DNA from: a virus
Taxonomy: Duplodnaviria > Caudoviricetes
DNA: 64,000 bases
Virus record (IMG/VR): IMGVR_UViG_3300036803_000072
Span: 1-64,000 of that record
Reading direction: 5' to 3' (one strand)
Part shown: in pieces, positions 16,537 to 28,264 of the stretch
Layout of the letters: each line of letters opens with the position of its first letter
Numbering within the stretch: position 1 is the stretch's first letter
Program-made: the position numbers and the translations under genes
Notes under the pieces: generated by a model
Databases searched by the model: none
Seen by the model: only the letters and a program-made list of their open reading frames with translations
Told to the model about the DNA's origin: nothing

Positions 16537-16734
16537 CTACCTTAGCCGGTCCGGGATGAAAGCCAACCCGATCGAATGCTTCCCATCTTCGGGGATCGGT
16601 GAACAGCACGCCGGGCACGGCATGCCCGCTCCGCCGCAGTAACAGGCCGCCGCGCAATCATGAAGATCACCCCACGGCTTGTCGGGGTGGTTCTCGCACA
16701 CGTGGGCCTGATCGTGACAGTTCTCGCAGTACAT
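16537..16734 (-). CDS. Small Cys/His-rich putative zinc-binding protein
   Basis: CENC, VCENH, CYC and CPAC motifs; ATG coupled to the polyprotein stop (TGATG). Confidence 0.6.
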   Translation of the reverse strand: MYCENCHDQAHVCENHPDKPWGDLHDCAAACYCGGAGMPCPACCSPIPEDGKHSIGLAFIPDRLR

Positions 16735-19700
16735 CAGCCCACCGTCGCCGCTGTGGGCTGCATCTGATACCCGGTGGCGGCCGTAACCCCGCGCGGACCG
16801 GCTTTCGACCCGCACGACGGGCACGCCGTGGCCTTGCTATCACTACCAACGGGGACCTGGACGTCGTTGCCGCAGGCCGCGCACGGCCACACCTTGTGCA
16901 TCACTCCGGAAGCGTCCATGACGTACCGGATGTCGGCGGCCACCGTGTCCGCGTAGGCCTCCTCATCGGGGTCCGGCTTGTCTTCCGGGTCCGGGGTGTC
17001 GGACCCCGACGCGGTTCGGGCCTTGATCTCCACGCCGAGCCGGGCGGCGCGCGACAAATCGAATGCGTCGATCACCATGTCTTCGATGGTCTTCTCCTCG
17101 GGCACGAGGTGACGCTTCCACACGGCGTCGATCGCCGCCTTGTCCGCCTCTTCTCCCTTGCGAGCCTCCGCCCGGCGGGCTTCCTGGCGCTTCTCCCGTT
17201 CGGTGTAGTTCAGCTTGTAGTCGGACGGGTCGTAGCTGTATCCGCTCCACCGTTGCTGAAGCTGACCACTCCCCGTGCCCCACGGCAGGTCCAGGGCCTG
17301 GAGGTCGGCGAGCAGCGCGGCCGGGTCATCCACTGTCCCGGTCATGCCGGCGGGGCGCACGCTGACCCCGTCGGTGGTCATGAACACCTTCAGGTCACTA
17401 GCGTCGCCCATCGCGCCGAGCGCCCCATCGGGCGACGCGTAGGCCTTCCCGGAGGCTTGCGGGTTGACGAACTTCTGCAACACCACCTTGCCGGCCTTGT
17501 TATAGGTGGAACGGCCCATGTTGCCCACCGCGCGGGCGGCCCTACTGCGGGCCGCTGACACGTTCTCGTCGGCCTGGGTTGCTACCGGCCCGGTCGGTGC
17601 GGCCGTGTTCACTCCGTCGGCTTGGAGTTTCGCCTCCAGCCGGGCCGACTCTGCCCGCGCGGCCTTCAGCTCATCGGTCTTCGGGAAGGCCATCCCCACG
17701 CGGGTCTTCATCTGCGCCACCTCTGAGCGCAGGTGCGCGGCCCGGTCGTGAAAGCGGTCGCGGCGGTTCTCGAAGCTGTGCAAGCTGTACTCGATCTTCG
17801 CGATGGTGCCGACACCCAGCTTATTGACGTCCTCTTGCGACATGCCGGTGATCACACCGGGCACGTCCTCAAAGTAGAGGTCGACGTGCATGCGCTGCTC
17901 GCGGCCCTGGTAGGGCTTCGCCATCAGCGTGTGGCCACCGATCTGGGCGACCTGCACCGGGCGGGGCGACCCGTAGGCGTACCGGGCCCGGTCGATGACG
18001 TCACCCAGCTTGGTCTTCAGCTCCGTGGCGGCGTCGGCGCGCTTAGTGACATCCACACCGGCGATGGTGGCCCGGAAGTGATCCCCGCCGATCTCCGTGC
18101 GCCTCTTGATCGCCGCATCCATCACTTTCGCGTCCGCGTCGGCCCCGGCGGCGTTAGCGGTGTAAGACACGATGTCTTTTTCGAGGTTGGTTTGGGTGCG
18201 CTTGTGCACCCGTTCCAATTTCGACAGCTTCGCCACCGACGAGTCGGCCTTCGCTTTGGCCATCAGGTCCATGTTGCCGGTGGCCAGGGCCTTGACCTCG
18301 TCATAGGACAGAGCGGTGTCGCCGACGTCCTCGATCTCCCGGGCGTCGAGGTTCCCGCGCATGATCTGCTCGATGAACTTTTGTTTACGGGCCAGGGTTT
18401 GCCACATGTAGGCGTCGAATGAGCCTTCGGTGACGTACCGGTAGATCCCCACCGTGGTATTGGTGTTGCCCTGGCGCATGATCCGGCCGTCGCGCTGTTC
18501 CACATCGGCGGGGCGCCACGGGGCGTCGAGATGGTGCAGGGCCACCGCACGGCGCTGCACGTTCGTGCCGACCCCCATCTTCTCCGAGGATCCGACGAGC
18601 ACGGAGATCGAGCCATTGCGGGCAGCGGCGAACATCTCCGCTTTCTGCACGTCGTTTTTCGCCTCGTGAATGAACCGCACCGACTTAGGGTCCATGCCCC
18701 GGGCGGCCAATTCGTCCCGCAGTTTCGCGTACGCGTTCCACTGCTCGGGATTGCCCGGTGTGCCCATGTCCAGGAACACCAGTTGCATCCCGCCGGGTGG
18801 CGGGTCGTCACCGGCATCAGGATTGTCGAGGTCTTTCGGCACGGGACGGTTTTTGTTGACCAGGTAGATCGCGTGGATCTTGTCGGCCGCGTCCTCGATC
18901 TTGCCCGTGGTGTGCTCGCCACCGACCAGGGCCATGCTCAGCGCGGCCTTGCGGCCATCACCGGAGATCTTGAGCATGTTGTCTTCCTCGGGCAGCACGG
19001 TGCGGTTGCGGACCGCCTCGGCCCGCTCGCCCAGCTGCGCCACGTAAGCCCGCAGCTCCTCCGAGGGCTGCACCGTGACGTTCTGCACCGCACCGGTCTC
19101 CAGGGCCGGGGTCGGCAGGTTCAGATCCTCAGCGGTCTTGATGTCGGCGAAGACGTGGAACAGGCGCAGCAGCTCAGGCACGTTGCGGAACTTCGCGAAT
19201 CGCGACGTCTGCCGGAAACCGATCCCCTCGGGCTTGAGCTCCATCTCCTCGACCACTTGACCGAATGTGGCCGCCCACTGGTCGAACGAATGGATGCCGG
19301 CCTCCTCTAGGAGGTCGGGGCGCATGAACCGTTGCATCACATACATTTGAGTGATGCTGTTGCGGATCGGGGTGCCGGTCGCGAACGTCGCCACCTTGCC
19401 CGACTGACTGCTAGCCCGCAGGTACTCCAATTTCATGTGCAGGTCGGTGGCCCGATCACTGCCCTCGATGGCGGCGCCCTGAATGTTGGACAGGGTCCGC
19501 AGGTTCGAGTACATGTGCGCCTCATCGACCATGACATGGTCGATGCCGGTCTGGTCGAAGCTGACCCCGACATCCTTCTGCTTGTCGAGCTTCTTTTTCA
19601 TCGCCTCCTCGGCGCGGATAACGGCCTTCTCCATTTTCTTGACCGTATTGTCGTGCGCCTTGCCCGACGCTGAGGAGGACTGCATGGCGAGCAGCTGGGC

Positions 19701-22700
19701 TCGCATCGTGGCGAGCTCGCGGTCGATGTAGGCCTTCTGCTGGTCTTTCGACATCGGGATGGCCTCGAACGCGCCCTGGGTGAGGATCACACAGTCCCAG
19801 TCGCCGGTGGCGGCGCGGGCAACGAACTCCCGGCGCCGGTCACCGTCGAGGTCTTTGGTGCCGGCGGCCAGGATCTTCGCCTGCGGGTAGGCCTCCAGGT
19901 ACTCGCGGGAGAACTGTTCGAGCATGTGGTTGGGGACCACGATGCTGGGCTTGTTGGCCAGGCCGAGCCGTTTGAGCTCGGCGCACCCCATGGCCATCTC
20001 TAGCGTCTTGCCGGCGCCCACCACGTGACCGAGTAGCGCGGCCGGTTCGGACACGATCCGTTCCACGGCCGCCACCTGGTGCGGGCGCGGCACTTTGGCG
20101 TCCGACATGCCGGGGAAGGCGCGTTCGGTGCCGTCGTAGCTGCGCAGCACGATCGCATTGAACCGATCGTTGTAGACGCCCTGAAGGCGCCGGGCGCGTG
20201 CCGGGTCCTCCCACAGCCACTCGCTGAAGCGTTCCTGGATCTCCTCGCCCTTCGCCTGGGCGGCCAGGGTGTCTTCGAGGTTCGGGTAGGACTTGCCATC
20301 GATGGTGTCAACGACCTTGATAGGTCGCTGCTCCAGCATCGCTTGCACGAGCTCGCCGAAAGACTTGCGGTCCGTGCCCCACTGCTCGGTGGCCGCCTTA
20401 CCGTAGGACGGGGCGTCCACCGTCCAGATGCCACCACCGGAGGTGGCCACGTTCACACCGGAGTAGCGATCACTCCCGACGCCCAGCATCTCCTCGATGA
20501 ACGCTTTGATGTCGGTCGGGCCGATCCACGCCGCGCCGAGCCGGCCGTCGATCTCGGCCGCACCGAGGTCCTCGGGTACGACTTTCTCCAGGGCCTTGAC
20601 GTTGGCCTCGAAGCGCGGGTCGTGCTCCGCTGCGGCTTTGGCGACAGCCAGCTTGCGGCGTACGTTGCCGGACAGGTAGGCCGCTGCCGGCTCCAGGGAA
20701 CCAGCCTCTTGCACAGACTCGCCGACGGTGGACAGGTCTACGTCACCGGCAGTGAGATGGGTGTCGACCAGCAGTCCGCGCGCTTCGGCGTCGGCGGCCA
20801 CGGCGGCGTTGGTTTCGGCGTCCGACAGCGGCGGCTGCTCGAAGATCAGGTCACCGAGTTGCGTGCGAGCACCAGCCTCATCGGTGCCCAGCATTTTCGC
20901 GATCGCCGGTAGGTCCACCCGACCGTAGGTGTCCATCGACAGGGCCAGCGCGTCTTTCGGATTGTCCGCCGTGGTCGGGATGACCCTCGGTGCGACCGTC
21001 CGCTTAGTGAAGATGCTGGTCTTGTGACCCTTGCCGGTCTCCGGGTCGTAGGTTTCCAGCGCGCGCACAGTCGCCGACATCGGGTCGCGGCGGAACCCAC
21101 CCTGACCGGGGGTGTTGCGGGCCCCGATCTTGCTCAGGGTGTAGCGGTTGATCGGCCCGTAGCGTTTCGCGTACGCGTCGTACTGGGCATTGAGGTCGGC
21201 CCGGAGTTGCTTGATCTCCGGTGTGTTCGACACCGACGCGGCCTCAGCGGCGAGCAGTGAGGCCAGGGTGTCGCGCATGCCCATCAGGCCGCGCAACTCC
21301 TCTTTCTGCTTCTCCGGCACCTCGAACGGGACGGCGGCGCCGCCGTTGGCCTGAGTGAAGTTGCCGTCGGCGTCGACCCCGATGTGCCCCTCGTGCCGGG
21401 AGGTGTCCGGGTCGACGAGTGCCCCGTCACCGGCCAGGCGCGGGCTGGACGTCAGGCCCTGTTCTTTCGCGGCGTCGGTGATCCGGGCCAGCGCGTCAGG
21501 CAGATCGGCCATGGACTTGTCACCGATCACCCGGATCTCGCCGGTGCCGTACTGGCCGGGCTCGGCGTGCAGCTCACCGAGGATCTGATCGGGGTGCTCG
21601 GTAAAGTAGTCGTTGACCGGGACTGTCTCGCCGTCGATCTCCCGCTCGCTGGAGTTGATCCAGCCTTGCGGGGTTTGTGGTTCCGCACCCGGCTCCCGGC
21701 GCCGGAAAATGAGAATGTCCTCGATGACCGACGTGCCCGACGCGCGCTGATGGCTACCGGTGGGCAGGCGCACCGCGCCGAGCAGGTCACCCTTCTCGGC
21801 CAGGCGCTTGCGCGCCGCGCTGCCCTTGGAGTCCAGGGTGTAGCGGGAGGTCAGGACGGCGACGATGCCGCCGGGTTTGGTCAGGTCCAGGGATTTGGCG
21901 ATGAAATGGTTGTGGATCGAGTCACCGGCGCGGTTGTGCAGCCGGTCGGTGAGCTTGAAGTCCCCGAAGGGGACGTTGCCGATGGTGGCGTCGAAGTGGC
22001 CGGTGGGGATGCGGGTGTCGGCGAAGGACTCGTTGCGGATGGTGGCGTTGGGGTACAGGGCGTGGGCGATGGCGGCGGTGGTGGAGTCGAGCTCCACCCC
22101 GACCATGTCGACGTTGCTCGGTGCGAAGCCGATGAAGTTGCCCGACCCGCTGCCCGGCTCCAACACCCGACCCCCGTCACTGAGGCCGAGATCCTGCACT
22201 GCCTTCCACATGGCCTGTACGGCGGTGGCGTCGGTGTAGTGGGCATTGAGGGTGTTGCGCTTGGCCTCGTTCCACTCCGAGTCGGACAGCAGGCCGCGCA
22301 GCTTGTCGCGGTCGGCCGCGTACTCGGGCTTCAGATCGTCGAAGACCTCAGGCAGGCCACCCCATCCGGCCCACCGGGCGAGGATCGCCTGCTCCTCGGG
22401 CGTGGCGGGGCGCTTGTCTTTTTGCAGCTCCCGCAGGGTTTCCAGGGCGGCGAGGTTGGCGTCGAGCTTCGCTTTCTTACCGGCGGGCGCGAGATCATCC
22501 ATGCCACCGGGCTGGAATGACTGGGCGGCGTCGGGGATGGCGTCGACCGCGCCCGGTGTGGCTTCAGGCTGGGCTAGGTCAGGTTCGCCGGCCGGGGCGG
22601 CACTACCGGCATCGCTTCCCGCTGGCTGGCCGTCTGTTCCTGTGTCGCTTGATCCATCAGGAGTTGGAAGTCGCTCAGGGCCTCGGTCAGTTCGTTGTCC

Positions 22701-25700
22701 TCCGGTGTCGGTTTCTGCGGGGGCATGCTCGGGTCCGGTGTCGCCACCGGCGGGTAGTCGCTGTCCGGCCAGTCCGGGGGCGGTGAGCTCATCAGCGTTT
22801 CCCGCATCACCAGTTCGGTCGCTGCCTGCTCCGCTGCTTTCAGGCGTCCCAGCTTCTGGCTGAACGTCTCGTCGGGCGGGTCGGTCCCCGCCAGCGCGTC
22901 GGCCACCTGCTGTATCTCCTGCTGCGCCCGGTCGCCCAGCTGGCCGAAGTACGTCGCCTTGTCCGCGATCTTGTCGTAGATCTGTGGCAGGTACTGCTGG
23001 TACCACTGGGCTACCCTCGTCGCCAGTGGCCCCATGGTGGGCGTCGTCATGGGCCGATTGTGCACCCTGATCGGCGAGTCGCCAGTTGGCTTCGCTGTCG
23101 CGTTTCGCATCGACTTCTTTCAGGATCTCGTCTACGGCGTCGTCGTCATCAGCGGCGAGCAGTCGAGCCTCTAGGGCGTGACACTCTTCCGGGTCACCGT
23201 CGACCCCCATTTCTCGCAACGCTTTGCGCAGCTTCAGCCGGTGCCCGTCGCGCACGGCATCGATGGCATCGTGCCGTGCATCGAGGTAGCCGTCCTGAAG
23301 TGAGGGTCGCCCCGACTCGTCAATGACGCGGGCAACATCGACTTTCGGCGCCGTTCCGGTCGTACTGGGTAAGGCGATCAAACCGAGGCGCCGCGCTTCC
23401 GGCGCCGCTTCGATCTCGGTAGCGCGCTCACGGGGATTGTCGTGGCCCATGGTTCGCAGGGCGCGCACGAGGGCGCCGTGGTCACCGGAGCGCGCGGCGG
23501 CTACAGCTGCGGCGTGGGCGTCTTGGATGGCGCTGTGCGCGTCGGCGGCTTCCCCGTTGGCCTGATCGCGGGCTGAAGCGTTGGCCTGCCGGGCGGTGCG
23601 GCGCTCGGTCGAGTCGGCGGGGGGGCCGGTCCGGTCGGCGGCGCCGGGCTTGACGGCGCCCATGCGGGCACGGTGCGCGTCGTAAGCGTCCGGCGCGGGC
23701 TTCACCTTGCCGGCGGTCTCCCGGCGGCGCAGCTCCGTCTCGACGGAGCCGAGCAGGGCCTTGATCCGATCCCGTTCGATGCGCTTAGCGACCCGACGCA
23801 CTTTGGCGTTCGCGTTGCGCTTGACGCGGCGTTCCTCGCGCAACCCGCCAGCGGCGGCGAACAGCATGCCGGGCTTGAGCTCCCCGCGCGCGATGGCGCC
23901 GTGGATGTCGTCCCCGATGACCCTATGAAGGTCATTGAACGCTTTGCTGTCGGCCGGGACGCGGCGCAACAACTTCGCCAAACGGTCCGCCGCTGCCTTC
24001 ACCGCAGCGGGGTCGGAGTCTTTCGTATTGAGCAGGTCACCGAGGTCTTCGGCGGCCCCGGCGACACCGGGGCGCAATTTCGGGCCGGTATCCTCACCCT
24101 GCCCGGCCGGGTCGGAAGTCGCCCCCGACCCCCCCGACCCGGCCGGGGCCTTCAGCGATGTACCGGCCTCGCGCTTGCGGGCGGTGTCGCGGCGAGCCAG
24201 CTCCGTCTGGAGAGCCAGTTCGTCGGTGAGATCTTTTTGGGTGGTGTGCAGCTGCGGCGTGGTCTGTCCGACTAGTGCCGCTTCGCCCGCTTGCAAGGCG
24301 GCTTCGACGCGGTCTTGCCGGGCGGCGACCTCCTCCGTAACCTCGATCGTGCCGTCGGGGTCTTCGCTGATACCCAACGCCTTATCCCGGACCTCGGCGG
24401 CGCGGTCTTGCACGTCGGGTGGCACGGGCACCGCGTCGGTGGGGATCTCCGACGCGGGCCTGCCTTGCGGCTGCACAGCGGCGACGGCGGCGCGCTTGCG
24501 CTTCTCATCCCCGAAGATCTTCTCGGCCATCTTCGAGTCGGAATACTCAGTCGAGGTCTTCGGCAGATTGTTTCCCCGTGCACGGGCGTGCCGCGCTTCC
24601 GCTGCCGCGTGCTCGGCTTCGAGCTGGTCGTCGGTCAGCTTCTCCGGCGCATTCATGTTGCCGGTGGGCACGTACGGGCCATCAGCGCGGGTGCCGCCAC
24701 CGGGCTTGCCGACCTGCTCACGGGCGTGCTGCTCGACGGTGGCCTGATCATCGGGCTGCGGGGTGCCGGTAGTGATCCGGGAATGCGCCGCCTGGGCGGC
24801 CTGATCGGTCACCGGGACGGCGGCCGGTGCGTTCACCCCGGGCGGCGCGTTCGGCGGCGCACCGGGCTTACTGGGGGGCGGGGCGACACCGCCGGGCGCT
24901 TGCCCCGGCTTACCCGCGCCAGCGGCGGGGTTCGCCGCGTTGGCGATCTTGTCGAGGCGTTGCTGCGCCACCTCGGTGGGCAGCACGAGCAGGGTGGCGG
25001 CAACGTCGTGCGGATCCTGGTCTTTGCTCAAACCCATCCGGGTCAGGGCGTCGGCGAGCTCATCGCGGTTGCCGTCACTGATCGCGCCCTCGGCGTCGTA
25101 CCGGGCCTGGGCGGCGTCCGCCGATGGCATGCCTTTCGGTGCCGGGGTCGCGCCCAGGGCGGTGCCGATCGTGGCGGCCTGGGAATGCTTGGTGATGATC
25201 GCGGTAACCGAGTCCTGGTCGGCCTTCCTCGCCGCCGGGTCCGCCCACCGCTTCTTACGGGCCGCCATGTCATCCCAGGGGATGCCGAGACCGGCGATCT
25301 CGGTCAGCGCAGCCTCGACCTGATCAGGCGGGGTGTCGGTCGGCAGCATCGGCAGGGGTGAGCCGTTGGCCGTGTCGACGATCACCCAGCCCTTGCCGTT
25401 GTTCACGGCCGCGATCTGGGAGTCCGGGGAGGCGAGCACGTTGGCGCCGGGACGGGTGAACTGGGCGAGCATGTTGGCGCTGGCGATCGCGCCGACACTG
25501 GCGACACCGCCGGGGGTGGTGTCGACGGCCTTCAGCTCGGAGATCCGCTCACCGAGGTGCGCGATCGCAGTAGCGGAGGCGTCGGTCGCACCGGACGTGT
25601 GACCGGGCAGCGCGTGACCGCCTGGTCGGTCACCGGGCGGGGGTGGTGGGCCGGCGGCGTTCGCACCCGAAGGTCGCTGTCCGGTGACCGGATGGGTGAG

Positions 25701-26513
25701 TTTGTGGCTGTCCTGCGCCGCGACGGTGGTGTGACGGATCTCGTCGTCGGTGGCGGGTCGGTCCAGGCCATGGGGTTTCGTGCCGGGCCTGATCGGCGTG
25801 CCGATAGGCATGCCCCAGAACTTCGCGTCGCGAACAGTACGCACTTTGACTTCGATCCCCTCGACGGTGGCTAGACCGGAACGAGGGTCATCGTACCACG
25901 TGTCGCCGTCGGCGGTCTCCGTTTGGAGGGATTTCACTCCAGTCAGATGTGCGAGCCGATGCGCGCCGTGCAATACCTGAGAAAACTCATACACATCGTA
26001 GTCGCTGAGGTAGCGTTTCCCGCCGCGCATTTTCGCGCCGCCGGGCCGCACCTTATAGCCAATCGAGAATGACTGCTCGGGACCGTAGAACTTCGCGTTC
26101 TCATAGGCGTCCCGGCCCGCCGTAGTGGCCAAGTTGTAGCGGGCCTTAACGAGCAGTCCGCCAGCGTTGGCGGGCCACGGGGCACCGTCGGGGGTCGTCT
26201 TCGGTAGCCGATCGTCGCCAGGCATGAGCTCAACCGCCCATTCCGCGCGCGAGACCGGGACCTTCCAGTCGTGCGAGTCGACACCCTTAGGCTTCAGCCG
26301 CTTGACGGCCACACCCAGGGAACCGGGCACGATGACGTCACCGACCTCATCGCCGACGCCGGACACCGCAACCAGCGCGGTGATGGTGCCCTCTTTGTCG
26401 TCATGGCCGATGACCCCGGTCATCGGTGAGGACGTCTCGCCCGTCGGCAGCGCCTTCCACTCCAGCTGACCGATGTCAGCCGGGCACGTGTCGAGGTCTT
26501 CGGTGGTGGTCAC
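16734..26513 (-). CDS. 3259-aa head polyprotein: HK97-type prohead protease + DarB-like N6-adenine methyltransferase + SNF2-type helicase
   Basis: Protease about 25930-26410 (GDVIVPGS, SHDW, SFSIGY, YEFSQV). MTase about 21600-22480 (RWAGWGG, NAHYT, VLEPGSGSG, IGNVPFG). Helicase about 18350-20100 (GAGKT, DEAH, ATGTP, QRDGRIMRQGN). Confidence 0.9.
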   Translation of the reverse strand: MTTTEDLDTCPADIGQLEWKALPTGETSSPMTGVIGHDDKEGTITALVAVSGVGDEVGDVIVPGSLGVAVKRLKPKGVDSHDWKVPVSRAEWAVELMPGDDRLPKTTPDGAPWPANAGGLLVKARYNLATTAGRDAYENAKFYGPEQSFSIGYKVRPGGAKMRGGKRYLSDYDVYEFSQVLHGAHRLAHLTGVKSLQTETADGDTWYDDPRSGLATVEGIEVKVRTVRDAKFWGMPIGTPIRPGTKPHGLDRPATDDEIRHTTVAAQDSHKLTHPVTGQRPSGANAAGPPPPPGDRPGGHALPGHTSGATDASATAIAHLGERISELKAVDTTPGGVASVGAIASANMLAQFTRPGANVLASPDSQIAAVNNGKGWVIVDTANGSPLPMLPTDTPPDQVEAALTEIAGLGIPWDDMAARKKRWADPAARKADQDSVTAIITKHSQAATIGTALGATPAPKGMPSADAAQARYDAEGAISDGNRDELADALTRMGLSKDQDPHDVAATLLVLPTEVAQQRLDKIANAANPAAGAGKPGQAPGGVAPPPSKPGAPPNAPPGVNAPAAVPVTDQAAQAAHSRITTGTPQPDDQATVEQHAREQVGKPGGGTRADGPYVPTGNMNAPEKLTDDQLEAEHAAAEARHARARGNNLPKTSTEYSDSKMAEKIFGDEKRKRAAVAAVQPQGRPASEIPTDAVPVPPDVQDRAAEVRDKALGISEDPDGTIEVTEEVAARQDRVEAALQAGEAALVGQTTPQLHTTQKDLTDELALQTELARRDTARKREAGTSLKAPAGSGGSGATSDPAGQGEDTGPKLRPGVAGAAEDLGDLLNTKDSDPAAVKAAADRLAKLLRRVPADSKAFNDLHRVIGDDIHGAIARGELKPGMLFAAAGGLREERRVKRNANAKVRRVAKRIERDRIKALLGSVETELRRRETAGKVKPAPDAYDAHRARMGAVKPGAADRTGPPADSTERRTARQANASARDQANGEAADAHSAIQDAHAAAVAAARSGDHGALVRALRTMGHDNPRERATEIEAAPEARRLGLIALPSTTGTAPKVDVARVIDESGRPSLQDGYLDARHDAIDAVRDGHRLKLRKALREMGVDGDPEECHALEARLLAADDDDAVDEILKEVDAKRDSEANWRLADQGAQSAHDDAHHGATGDEGSPVVPAVPATDLRQDRGQGDVLRPAGRPGAAGDTAGGRRAGGDRPARRDVQPEAGTPESSGAGSDRTGDAGNADELTAPGLAGQRLPAGGDTGPEHAPAETDTGGQRTDRGPERLPTPDGSSDTGTDGQPAGSDAGSAAPAGEPDLAQPEATPGAVDAIPDAAQSFQPGGMDDLAPAGKKAKLDANLAALETLRELQKDKRPATPEEQAILARWAGWGGLPEVFDDLKPEYAADRDKLRGLLSDSEWNEAKRNTLNAHYTDATAVQAMWKAVQDLGLSDGGRVLEPGSGSGNFIGFAPSNVDMVGVELDSTTAAIAHALYPNATIRNESFADTRIPTGHFDATIGNVPFGDFKLTDRLHNRAGDSIHNHFIAKSLDLTKPGGIVAVLTSRYTLDSKGSAARKRLAEKGDLLGAVRLPTGSHQRASGTSVIEDILIFRRREPGAEPQTPQGWINSSEREIDGETVPVNDYFTEHPDQILGELHAEPGQYGTGEIRVIGDKSMADLPDALARITDAAKEQGLTSSPRLAGDGALVDPDTSRHEGHIGVDADGNFTQANGGAAVPFEVPEKQKEELRGLMGMRDTLASLLAAEAASVSNTPEIKQLRADLNAQYDAYAKRYGPINRYTLSKIGARNTPGQGGFRRDPMSATVRALETYDPETGKGHKTSIFTKRTVAPRVIPTTADNPKDALALSMDTYGRVDLPAIAKMLGTDEAGARTQLGDLIFEQPPLSDAETNAAVAADAEARGLLVDTHLTAGDVDLSTVGESVQEAGSLEPAAAYLSGNVRRKLAVAKAAAEHDPRFEANVKALEKVVPEDLGAAEIDGRLGAAWIGPTDIKAFIEEMLGVGSDRYSGVNVATSGGGIWTVDAPSYGKAATEQWGTDRKSFGELVQAMLEQRPIKVVDTIDGKSYPNLEDTLAAQAKGEEIQERFSEWLWEDPARARRLQGVYNDRFNAIVLRSYDGTERAFPGMSDAKVPRPHQVAAVERIVSEPAALLGHVVGAGKTLEMAMGCAELKRLGLANKPSIVVPNHMLEQFSREYLEAYPQAKILAAGTKDLDGDRRREFVARAATGDWDCVILTQGAFEAIPMSKDQQKAYIDRELATMRAQLLAMQSSSASGKAHDNTVKKMEKAVIRAEEAMKKKLDKQKDVGVSFDQTGIDHVMVDEAHMYSNLRTLSNIQGAAIEGSDRATDLHMKLEYLRASSQSGKVATFATGTPIRNSITQMYVMQRFMRPDLLEEAGIHSFDQWAATFGQVVEEMELKPEGIGFRQTSRFAKFRNVPELLRLFHVFADIKTAEDLNLPTPALETGAVQNVTVQPSEELRAYVAQLGERAEAVRNRTVLPEEDNMLKISGDGRKAALSMALVGGEHTTGKIEDAADKIHAIYLVNKNRPVPKDLDNPDAGDDPPPGGMQLVFLDMGTPGNPEQWNAYAKLRDELAARGMDPKSVRFIHEAKNDVQKAEMFAAARNGSISVLVGSSEKMGVGTNVQRRAVALHHLDAPWRPADVEQRDGRIMRQGNTNTTVGIYRYVTEGSFDAYMWQTLARKQKFIEQIMRGNLDAREIEDVGDTALSYDEVKALATGNMDLMAKAKADSSVAKLSKLERVHKRTQTNLEKDIVSYTANAAGADADAKVMDAAIKRRTEIGGDHFRATIAGVDVTKRADAATELKTKLGDVIDRARYAYGSPRPVQVAQIGGHTLMAKPYQGREQRMHVDLYFEDVPGVITGMSQEDVNKLGVGTIAKIEYSLHSFENRRDRFHDRAAHLRSEVAQMKTRVGMAFPKTDELKAARAESARLEAKLQADGVNTAAPTGPVATQADENVSAARSRAARAVGNMGRSTYNKAGKVVLQKFVNPQASGKAYASPDGALGAMGDASDLKVFMTTDGVSVRPAGMTGTVDDPAALLADLQALDLPWGTGSGQLQQRWSGYSYDPSDYKLNYTEREKRQEARRAEARKGEEADKAAIDAVWKRHLVPEEKTIEDMVIDAFDLSRAARLGVEIKARTASGSDTPDPEDKPDPDEEAYADTVAADIRYVMDASGVMHKVWPCAACGNDVQVPVGSDSKATACPSCGSKAGPRGVTAATGYQMQPTAATVG
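22574..23050 (-). CDS. Nested same-strand, out-of-frame gene (TnpV-like small protein)
   Basis: Protein-like sequence WYQQYLPQIY...YFGQLG...LAGTDPPDETF.QKLGRL; codons end almost entirely in G/C in this frame, while the polyprotein frame here is A/T-ending and low-complexity. Confidence 0.6.
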   Translation of the reverse strand: MTTPTMGPLATRVAQWYQQYLPQIYDKIADKATYFGQLGDRAQQEIQQVADALAGTDPPDETFSQKLGRLKAAEQAATELVMRETLMSSPPPDWPDSDYPPVATPDPSMPPQKPTPEDNELTEALSDFQLLMDQATQEQTASQREAMPVVPPRPANLT

Positions 26514-28264
26514 CCGGTCACCGGCGCGTCGAACAGGTTCGGCTCCGCCATCTCCGCACCGTCCACTGTGGCCGTTCCGGAAACGTCCGCGACGTCCTCC
26601 ATTGTGGATTCAGGCGCGGGGTCGGCGATCATTCGAGCCCCTAGGGCGGCGTGCTGGGCGGTGGCCAACAGGTCAGCCGTAGTGTCGTCGGCGTCACCCT
26701 GGGCGTCGTCAGGGATGTCGCCCAGCTGCTCCTCCAGGGCGGCGAGGTAGTCGGCCACGTAGGGCTCATCGAAGACCTGACCCCAGTCGTCGACCCCGGC
26801 GTGCAGCGCGGCGAGCTCGGCGTCGGTGTCATCTATCGCCATCGCCACGGCCTTGATCTCGACATCTTCGGGCCAGACCAGGGCCTTCGCACCCACTACG
26901 CGGCCCATGTTCATCGACCGGCCGACGTTGCCGCGCGCGGTGTGCGCGTACTTACCGGGCCATTCACCCGTGGCCATCTTGTGAATGTTCGCGGTGAGTC
27001 CATTAAGAACGCGCGGGGAATGCACATACTTAGCCAGGTGCCGGCGCAGGCGCTTGAAATCCCCGCCGCTACCCGGACGCCATTTTGCGCGTCCTTTCCC
27101 GTAAGCCCAGTAATTGCGCAGTTTCGCCGCACGCGGATCCGGTGAAGCGATCTTCACCTCGACGTCGTCTTCGAGAGACTTCTCGCCGGGCTTGTCGGGC
27201 TCGCCGGAGTCGTCGTCACCGTCGTGGTCGGGATCCAGGGCGTCGATACGGTCGTGGATGACCTGTGGGGCGTACAGCCGGTGCGCTTCGGACTTCAGGT
27301 GCGCCTTGAGCTTGTGCTTGTCCCCCGGTCGGGCGTCATGGAACTTATCGATCTCGTCTTTCAGGTCCTCGGAGTTCTGCACCGGGTGACGGTTGGTGCG
27401 CCCGTCTAAGGTGTGCCCGGTCTTGCGCAGCCCGTTGCGCTCGTGCCCGGACATGGCCCGCTTGACCTCGATGTCGTCGACATCATCGGCCTCGACGCTC
27501 TCGGCGCGTTTGGCTTCGATCTCACCCGCGCGGTCGCGCATGTCGCCGGCCCACGCGGCACCCACGTCCCCGCAATGTTCGGCCACCCAGTCCACGCCGC
27601 GCGAGTTAAGGGCCTTGCCCTCAGCGACCAGGGCGGCGACCGGGCCGGGCAGAATCGCGGCCACCTCGCACACCACCTGCGGCGGGGTGAAAGTGACCTC
27701 ACCGGACTTCGTTTCGGTGATCACGGGTGCCTCCTGATTGCCGAGCGGTATGTCGAGCACGTCGCCGGCCAGGGCCAGGCGCAGCGTGCCGAAGCGAACG
27801 GGGCCGGTGTAGGTCTGCGCCGAGACTCCAGCTGCTGAGTCGTCGGGGTCCACGGCCACCGTGACGTGAGGCAGGAATGGTTCGTGTTGCGGTGGCGGGT
27901 CGGGGTAGTCGTCATAGGTGCTGGTCGTCCAGCTCGCCCACGTGCGCAGCGCACCCAGTCCCGGTGCGTCGCTGACCATGAGCACGAGACAGGGGGTGCG
28001 GTCACCGTCGGGCCCGCCATCGGGATTGAACAGCGCGGGTCCGATGATCCGGGCGTCCACCGGATCGAGACTCGGTGCGGATGCGGTCACCAGCTGGCGG
28101 AGCCGGTCACCGGCACTGGCAGGCCAGGTGGTGACGTCATCACCGAGATAGAGCAGGGTCAGGTGCAGTTCGCTGGCCGGCTCGCCACCGTCCAGCGCCA
28201 GAACGGCAGGGTTGTCGGGGACCAGTGCAAGCATACCGCCGGTGTGCTGCGGGCTATCGACCAT
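26510..28264 (-). CDS. 2H phosphoesterase (2'-5' RNA ligase-like) fused to several small head-associated domains
   Basis: Two HxT motifs (LHLTLLYLG, FLPHVTVA) in the first ~175 aa, followed by modules separated by ExK motifs; stop overlaps the polyprotein start. Confidence 0.8.
   Translation of the reverse strand: MVDSPQHTGGMLALVPDNPAVLALDGGEPASELHLTLLYLGDDVTTWPASAGDRLRQLVTASAPSLDPVDARIIGPALFNPDGGPDGDRTPCLVLMVSDAPGLGALRTWASWTTSTYDDYPDPPPQHEPFLPHVTVAVDPDDSAAGVSAQTYTGPVRFGTLRLALAGDVLDIPLGNQEAPVITETKSGEVTFTPPQVVCEVAAILPGPVAALVAEGKALNSRGVDWVAEHCGDVGAAWAGDMRDRAGEIEAKRAESVEADDVDDIEVKRAMSGHERNGLRKTGHTLDGRTNRHPVQNSEDLKDEIDKFHDARPGDKHKLKAHLKSEAHRLYAPQVIHDRIDALDPDHDGDDDSGEPDKPGEKSLEDDVEVKIASPDPRAAKLRNYWAYGKGRAKWRPGSGGDFKRLRRHLAKYVHSPRVLNGLTANIHKMATGEWPGKYAHTARGNVGRSMNMGRVVGAKALVWPEDVEIKAVAMAIDDTDAELAALHAGVDDWGQVFDEPYVADYLAALEEQLGDIPDDAQGDADDTTADLLATAQHAALGARMIADPAPESTMEDVADVSGTATVDGAEMAEPNLFDAPVTG

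Follow-up and report, generated by a model that had tools for sequence, protein, structure and literature searches.

The stretch of DNA analyzed here, which we call the window, consists of the 64,000 nucleotides at positions 1 to 64,000 of the IMG/VR virus record IMGVR_UViG_3300036803_000072 (Duplodnaviria; Caudoviricetes), and is part of this 77-kb record (66% G+C). Its minus strand carries a giant open reading frame (ORF). Inside this giant ORF, in another frame of the same strand, lies a small ORF that encodes a protein resembling the TnpV proteins of mobile elements. From the results described below, we think it very probable that both frames are functional coding sequence, that is, that the TnpV-like gene is nested in the tether of a giant gene whose product has a head-protease-like and a DarB-like part. 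The features on which this reading depends are as follows.

16734..26513, minus strand: giant ORF of 3,259 amino acids (aa) with a GTG start; a polyvalent virion-type protein of a soil phage.
25920..26408, minus strand: head maturation protease-like domain, giant residues ~36-198 (phrog_80 'head maturation protease', E 6.8e-12).
22574..23050, minus strand: nested TnpV-like gene of 158 codons followed by TAG, frame +1 relative to the giant ORF; in the giant frame these bases give residues ~1155-1314.
16737..22520, minus strand: DarB-like module, in which an F-x-P..D-L-A-P-x-G motif is followed by a DNA methyltransferase (MTase), an SF2/SNF2 helicase (SF2, superfamily 2) and a C-terminal region.

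The giant protein thus begins with a head-maturation-protease-like N-terminus, continues through long linkers and ends with a DarB-like MTase-helicase. The phrog_80 match falls within its first 250 residues, and the protease-like domain is ~70% identical among the phage relatives. The last 1,928 residues match phrog_10089 'DarB-like antirestriction' (E 0, 1318 bits), and this module also matches phrog_11801 DNA methyltransferase (9e-198) and phrog_62 helicase (6.6e-43). By the PHROG matches, a single phage polypeptide contains an adenine MTase and, after it, an SF2/SNF2 helicase, as in a DarB-like dyad. The protease-like and DarB-like parts are separated by ~1,000 residues of linker-like sequence. 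Orthologues of the giant ORF, with 3,168 to ~3,690 codons, were found in the viral contigs L002, L007, L009 and L011, and in L001 the ORF runs off the contig.

Since (26513-23050) mod 3 = 1, the nested ORF is read in frame +1 relative to the giant ORF, and 477 bases are shared by the two frames of one strand. A longer open frame of the same strand (22574..23110, minus) holds the nested gene; the homologues begin at the ATG at 23050, and the nested product is therefore 158 aa long. We then calculated the G+C content of each codon position in 240-nt windows along the giant ORF. The third-position value (GC3) of the giant frame was 0.8-0.95 elsewhere in the ORF, where it exceeded those of the other two positions nearly throughout, and over ~23100-22550 it was 0.41-0.55, with a first-position value of 0.85-0.91. 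The nested frame over its own bases had a GC3 of 0.86 with a low second-position value, which is the ordinary coding signature of this genome. An earlier note made from the letters of the window had described a 158-aa shifted-frame ORF with mostly G/C-ending codons (CAG TGG TAC CAG CAG TAC CTG), opposite many A/T-ending codons and a disordered linker in the polyprotein frame. Both parts of this description were borne out, the second also by the linker composition given below.

The nested ORF was intact in seven viral contigs (six distinct sequences), always in the +1 frame, and the encoded proteins were 42-63% identical between phage lineages (90% for L007 and L009). In every phage pair compared over the same bases, the identity of the nested frame exceeded that of the giant frame, for example 0.54 vs 0.49, 0.53 vs 0.40 and 0.46 vs 0.35, and 0.90 vs 0.84 for L007 and L009. 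Furthermore, the variation across phages peaked at the third codon position of the nested frame. The tnpV frame appears to be the older reading, because its codon usage bears the normal signature and its conservation is the higher of the two.

The nested-type proteins are acidic, with a median isoelectric point (pI) of 4.2 in phages and 4.4 in cellular copies. The AlphaFold2 (AF2) model of the window protein, calculated with 61 family members in the alignment, was all-helical with a mean predicted local distance difference test (pLDDT) score of 89.5, and an alignment of 15 sequences had given a poor model (pLDDT 58). In the better model, helices at residues 8-27, 31-54 and 63-86 come first, and a Pro-rich connector links them to a fourth, at 116-146.

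The earlier note had also proposed a homology search of the nested protein, and this yielded homologues at 46-96% identity together with a large profile family. By a word-indexed search we obtained nine metagenome homologues (47-96% identity, 111-172 aa), which are called as separate genes with the same start Met; the closest two, 96% and 84% identical, share the nested start. A profile of 15 sequences matched 758 representative clusters at E<=1e-3, and 285 of them at E<=1e-10. Nearly all of the 758 are small proteins that align from their first residues. When the nested protein was searched against plasmids with tblastn, 18 actinobacterial plasmids were matched (28-45% identity, E 7e-11 to 1e-3), from Arthrobacter, Kocuria, Micromonospora, Paenarthrobacter, Microbacterium and Rhodococcus. 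Nine of these matches fall under genes annotated as 'TnpV protein'. On Arthrobacter pA58H2 the gene order is recombinase, TnpV and a 1,673-aa 'helicase-related protein' that has the same MTase and SNF2 matches, and like tnpV/helicase pairs are present on Kocuria, Micromonospora and Microbacterium plasmids. The resemblance that the earlier note had pointed out, to TnpV-like proteins upstream of DarB-type helicases on actinobacterial plasmids, is therefore real.

The link to the Pfam TnpV family is weaker. The window protein gave no match to PF14198 at E<=0.1, and the Arthrobacter 'TnpV protein' matched it with 16.3 bits (E 0.01) against a gathering score of 27 bits. PF14198 was matched at E<=0.01 by 13 of the 61 profile-linked family members (best 5e-5), and no other Pfam family recurred. 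These matches point to a relationship to TnpV that is distant and transitive only. The nested protein matched no NCBIfam and no PHROG family, and a tblastn search of 50,697 phage records gave no match. Searches of genome contigs and of metagenome contigs with the phage-family alignment found nothing. A sequence-profile search of the PDB gave nothing below E 0.35, and Foldseek with the model found nothing in the PDB at E<=0.001. Against BFVD, the sole match was one uncharacterised Siphoviridae protein (probability 0.97, TM score ~0.4). Lambda GamS (Z 5.2) was considered as a structural relative and rejected, because the best Z of 5.5 in the wide structural search is noise for helical proteins.

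Taken together, these comparisons of relatives indicate that the nested ORF is a real gene. The giant frame over the same bases was then analyzed as follows. The giant frame had no stop codon across the nested gene in six phages, or in any of the five independent phage lineages, and the third forward frame of the same stretch had 7-11 stops in the phages. With each TnpV-like protein sequence fixed, new codons were sampled for it at the frequencies used in the neighbouring large gene. By this resampling, 2.4-3.4 stops were expected in the giant frame of each phage, and the probability of finding none was 0.03-0.075; a second resampling gave 2.2-3.4 stops and 0.02-0.09. In the plasmids (7/7), the helicase frame over tnpV also had no stop, the third frame had 3-9, and the phase of tnpV relative to the helicase was the same in all seven whatever the annotated length of the spacer.

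A scan of one genome per species, made with an alignment narrower than the 61-member set, gave 80 actinobacterial loci. The -1 frame of tnpV was without a stop in 75 of these, as compared with an expectation of ~2-3 per locus, and the +1 frame had 3-11 stops. In 73 of the 80, the MTase was in the -1 frame of tnpV and this frame was open from upstream of the tnpV ATG to the MTase. For 29 non-redundant cellular loci (<75% TnpV identity), which were taken from loci already open, 52.7 stops were expected and 0 were seen. A natural negative control was provided by three tnpV-like loci (L085, L089 and L092) without an MTase within 3.7 kb downstream, which have 2-3 stops in the -1 frame. These results indicate that the giant frame is held open by selection and not by G+C content. 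The caveat of the earlier note, namely that high GC3 keeps a shifted frame open by default, does not account for the data, since the third frame has 3-11 stops. As a side observation, the tnpV/MTase phase is broken in three long-read metagenome-assembled genomes (MAGs) of Solirubrobacterales (L053, L074 and L078), where frame 0 carries the MTase or an extended tnpV ORF reaches 335 aa. These are probably indel errors rather than real variants.

The peptide that the giant frame encodes over the overlap also has an unusual composition. In the five phages, G/A/D/R/P/E make up 77% of its residues, and hydrophobic, aromatic or Cys residues 7.6%. The number of the latter in the phage linkers was 61, as compared with 108.5 ± 4.6 by resampling conditioned on the absence of stops. 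In the 29 cellular loci, 424 were seen and 468.7 ± 9.4 predicted. The T-ending codons of tnpV are depleted in parallel with these linker residues. Because hydrophobics are fewer than the resampling predicts, the linker seems to be shaped as a hydrophilic tether, which is presumably disordered, and since it is hydrophilic by selection, it is arguably translated. Thus, the comparison across divergent relatives indicates that both frames are intact and under selection.

In the plasmid and chromosomal copies, the helicase frame begins upstream of tnpV. A peptide conserved in 29/29 representatives is encoded in the helicase frame 5' of tnpV (M-A-R-x-R-K … G-Q-L/V-S-F/L-D-x-L/F-W/F … P-E-E … R-D-E-Q-V-R). 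In most representatives this 28-aa N-terminal peptide starts at an ATG, occasionally a GTG, located 76-91 nt before the tnpV ATG, and a GGAG-like Shine-Dalgarno (SD) site precedes this upstream start. The SD sequence of tnpV itself, GAGGAGG, doubles as the Glu-Glu codons of the helicase peptide. The helicase start is upstream of tnpV, and tnpV is therefore wholly nested in the helicase gene of the cellular and plasmid elements. The F-x-P..D-L-A-P-S-G motif opens the helicase family, and the starts assigned by the Prokaryotic Genome Annotation Pipeline (PGAP) fall inside or past it; several plasmids have no helicase-frame start codon between tnpV and this motif. In the window, aligned with the plasmid helicases, the corresponding F-x-P..D-L-A-P-x-G motif begins 54 nt past the nested stop. 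The peptide, which the PGAP starts leave out (L017-L096, e.g., L030:3925-4003 and L027:3916-4003; also L004 and L012), shows a basic stretch followed by G-Q-L/V-x-F/L-D-x-L/F-W/F. We take its Q-L-x-L-x-F/W part to resemble a beta-sliding-clamp-binding motif.

The same dual-coded linker is found with another partner. That is, in two Micromonospora plasmids a ~430-aa primase-like domain is joined to the helicase through it, and the annotation there is inconsistent, with one 2,502-aa helicase without tnpV as against tnpV plus a shorter helicase. These primase-like fusions are at L005:7713-15221 and L014:1162-5225, and the L014 domain is overlaid by minus-strand ORFs that are probably spurious. 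On a Micromonospora zamorensis plasmid (L013, NZ_CP107937.1 1291-6635), a tnpV-like gene lies between an ArdC-like gene and a 15.5-kb 'UvrD-helicase domain-containing' gene (~5,180 codons), a neighbourhood that looks like an anti-restriction cluster. In addition, locus L061, labelled Vibrio cholerae strain 35D, has an Arthrobacter-type tnpV/helicase cassette and groups with Arthrobacter in the tree described next; its assembly is likely contaminated or mislabelled.

We constructed a maximum-likelihood tree of the region after tnpV, by a quick search and with a root set only by midpoint. The six phage sequences formed one clade (SH-aLRT, the Shimodaira-Hasegawa-like approximate likelihood ratio test, 100) among the actinobacterial plasmid and chromosomal forms, and its sister grouping with two plasmid loci was weak (86, drawn open). 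In the phage clade, a carrier of ~1,150 aa, consisting of the head protease and linker, stands in place of the short N-terminal peptide, with both the dual-coded stretch and the DarB-like module still present. It is plausible that a phage captured the plasmid cassette, and the tree is compatible with this. The earlier note had proposed that a two-gene cassette was captured and that the polyprotein then came to read through its first gene. The gene is real, the phage frame does run through it and the capture agrees with the tree; the order of events is only partly right, because the helicase ORF is already open through tnpV in 73/80 cellular and plasmid loci. The nesting therefore predates the phage fusion.

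As to the start of the nested gene in phages, GGGAG- or GAGGG-type sites lie a few bases before the nested ATG in L001, L002, L007 and L009, and all seven plasmids also have an SD site. Another element was found close to this ATG in the window.

23055..23068, minus strand: DNA motif AGGGTGCACAATCG, ending 4 nt before the nested ATG and common to the window, L007, L009 and L011.

This motif is kept in four divergent phages amid an otherwise poorly conserved stretch, and the giant frame reads it as Q-G-A-Q-S. It could be a promoter element for a leaderless mRNA, as the transcription start at 23050 mentioned in the earlier note would imply, or a site at which the polyprotein is processed, or it may simply reflect conservation of Q-G-A-Q-S. 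A scan with a sigma-70-type consensus found no promoter near the nested start.

Several other explanations must be considered. One concerns the origin of the arrangement and is compatible with dual coding: tnpV may have come in a recombinase-driven mobile element that inserted into snf2/DarB-type genes, and survived since the host frame read through it. The recombinase gene directly 5' of tnpV in pA58H2 fits this idea. So do the TnpV-bearing cargoes and integrative and mobilizable elements of Streptococcus suis, which integrate specifically into the snf2 gene of integrative and conjugative elements (PMC9815147), and the postulated action of Tn4451 TnpV in excision (PMC3158075). An analogue is the hidden HNH gene described in a read-through insertion of a phage methylase (PMC11855218). 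Yet no recombinase adjoins tnpV in the other six plasmid regions. Moreover, even very divergent loci agree in the position, the frame and the flanking motifs, which points to long vertical co-inheritance. We regard this origin as improbable.

It could also be supposed that the nested ORF is the dead relic of a captured tnpV, kept open in the phage through high GC3 and the constraint of the giant frame. The window copy lacks a canonical SD, and high-GC genomes leave many off-frames open, as the ORF list of the window shows. A relic would not explain why the ORF stays intact in six distinct phage sequences whose proteins differ so much between lineages (42-63% identity), why the nested frame is conserved better than the giant frame with its variation peaking at the third position, or why the window sequence gives a confident AF2 fold. 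The metagenome relatives at 96% and 84% identity share its start, and the other off-frame of the phages is broken by 7-11 stops. Such a relic is very unlikely.

Equally unlikely is programmed ribosomal frameshifting, by which TnpV would be a domain of the large protein in a carrier-TnpV or TnpV-helicase fusion. A ribosome leaving the tnpV frame for that of the helicase would make a -1 shift, the commonest programmed type, and a fixed frame relation would fit. Among 13 loci, no slippery heptamer of the form X XXY YYZ was conserved, either within the tnpV frame or close to the tnpV start, and programmed frameshifting is therefore not supported. In the plasmids tnpV has its own strong SD and ATG, and with a shift site near its 3' end there would be no reason for the helicase frame to stay open over the entire gene.

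Finally, the idea that carrier, tnpV and helicase are three separate genes, the giant frame being open by chance and untranslated or the helicase restarting past tnpV, agrees with the separate PGAP calls of tnpV and a downstream-starting helicase on most plasmids and with an in-frame ATG within the conserved motif past the nested stop of the window, but it is scarcely credible, because the carrier has no stop codon and ribosomes must continue, none of the ~53 stops expected in the 29 cellular representatives occurs and none occurs in the phages, the frame relation is constant in 73/80 loci, several plasmids lack any start codon between tnpV and the helicase motif, a conserved N-terminal peptide is encoded 5' of tnpV, and the linker composition is under selection.

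The reading that both frames are coding thus seems the best explanation, and both products are presumably made in this phage. Several points weigh against it. The case is a comparative one. There is no canonical SD before the nested ATG of the window, which leaves initiation uncertain for this phage. The divergence at synonymous sites of the nested frame is just modestly reduced (0.37-0.47 vs 0.43-0.62 elsewhere). The 29 cellular representatives came from loci already open, a bias that is small because 69 of the 80 loci qualified. In addition, neither a structural nor a functional match was obtained for the small protein, and its role is therefore a guess.

Assuming dual coding, the arrangement may be considered as follows. 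The giant frame would encode a Gly/Ala/Asp/Arg/Pro-rich tether that joins the protease-like carrier of ~1,150 aa to the DarB-like methylase-helicase. Tether and carrier together presumably let the anti-restriction enzyme enter the capsid and travel with the DNA. From the protease-like domain and the biology of P1 DarB (PMC5512222), packaging in the virion and protection of the incoming DNA from restriction may be supposed. The +1 frame would encode a separate, folded, acidic (pI ~4.2) four-helix TnpV-like protein from its own internal start. The frame of the large gene would be superimposed on tnpV, whose synonymous sites are selected against bases that read as stops or as codons for hydrophobic residues in the large frame. 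The nesting would be ancestral to the cassette, and the phage lineage would have swapped the short N-terminal peptide for a carrier that targets the capsid.

We can propose two ideas about the small protein. In the broader one, the nesting is an ancient and obligatory gene-within-gene arrangement of Actinomycetota plasmids, integrative elements and phages, and the anti-restriction enzyme requires the small protein as its partner or safety catch, the dose of the small protein being fixed by two ribosome-binding sites that lie ~85 nt from each other on a single mRNA; we give this slightly less than an even chance. The other is more doubtful, namely that the small protein might act as a partner, escort or regulator of the DarB-like enzyme, with its supply tied to that of the enzyme through the shared mRNA.

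The remaining features of the giant ORF lie in its DarB-like half.

21792..22034, minus strand: N6-adenine MTase core, Eco57I-like, residues 1494-1574 (PF07669, E 5.4e-4, below the gathering score; supported by the PHROG methyltransferase matches).
18468..20093, minus strand: SF2/SNF2 helicase core, residues 2141-2682 (ResIII, SNF2-related and Helicase_C matches; PHROGs).
16803..16883, minus strand: C-terminal zinc-ribbon-like CxxC..CxxC, residues 3211-3237 (PF09723 weak, E 0.011; the translation shows the Cys pairs).

The Pfam matches to Eco57I, ResIII, SNF2 and Helicase_C are weak and below their cut-offs. In the carrier half, a helix motif A-L-R/T-x-M-G … P … E occurs three times (residues ~487-525, 985-1015 and 1075-1115; window 23200-25100, minus), which suggests an internal repeat. 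The last 4 bases of a 584-aa ORF at 26510-28264 (minus) overlap the start of the giant ORF, and translational coupling with the giant ORF may occur.

Small genes embedded out of frame in a larger gene of the same strand are known, such as Rz1 inside Rz of phage lambda and comS inside srfAB of Bacillus subtilis, and in both cases both products are functional. The general kind is thus known already. The present case differs from these in that the overlap extends over ~90-180 codons, the nested protein is predicted to be folded and is conserved at 42-63% between phage lineages and 28-45% with actinobacterial plasmids, and the host-frame segment is a low-complexity tether. The TnpV of Tn4451/Tn4453 and Tn6104-6106 (PF14198) resembles the nested product as a small helical protein of mobile elements, and PGAP gives the plasmid homologues the name 'TnpV protein'. 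Classical TnpV is encoded by a stand-alone gene beside that of the serine recombinase TnpX and has been postulated to be Xis-like (PMC3158075). In contrast, the gene in the window is nested in a helicase gene, its product has an acidic Pro-rich tail, and there is no recombinase partner in the phage.

The giant protein resembles DarB of phage P1 and the polyvalent methylase-helicase dyads (PMC5512222) in that a DarB-like MTase and an SF2 helicase are fused to other modules in a giant phage polypeptide. In the survey of polyvalent proteins by Iyer et al. 2017 (PMC5512222), the DarB-type MTase-helicase dyad is preceded by 'LPD36', and the window MTase is likewise preceded by a conserved N-terminal element. 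The differences from the P1 dyad are the head-maturation-protease-like carrier and the linker before the MTase, which is coded in two frames. The same survey contains no mention of TnpV, an overlapping gene or frameshift. The 'ShiLan' insertion in a phage methylase (PMC11855218) is a similar case of a stop-free host methylase frame, in which the inserted segment hides a gene of its own. That insertion is reported to be actively homing, whereas nothing in the present locus suggests current mobility and the nested gene encodes no nuclease. A full-text literature search on TnpV with helicase, overprinting and polyvalent proteins did not find the nesting described, and we found no published description of tnpV nested in a DarB-like gene.

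Long conserved regions in which one strand codes in two frames are rare in bacteria and phages, and they seldom have comparative support as strong as that given here by dozens of lineages independent of each other, with a negative control built into the data. The finding corrects a systematic annotation error, in which either tnpV goes unannotated or the helicase is given a start past tnpV, so that the conserved N-terminal peptide and the linker are lost. It also physically ties a small uncharacterised family (758 clusters) to DarB-like anti-restriction enzymes, and offers a handle on the control or assembly of giant delivered proteins. In addition, it illustrates a way in which a phage could join an anti-restriction module of plasmids to a carrier that targets the capsid and leave the embedded gene undisturbed. 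If the nesting is indeed ancient and obligatory, thousands of helicase gene starts in public data would be misplaced, and few same-strand dual-coding regions known from prokaryotic mobile elements would be as long or as widespread.

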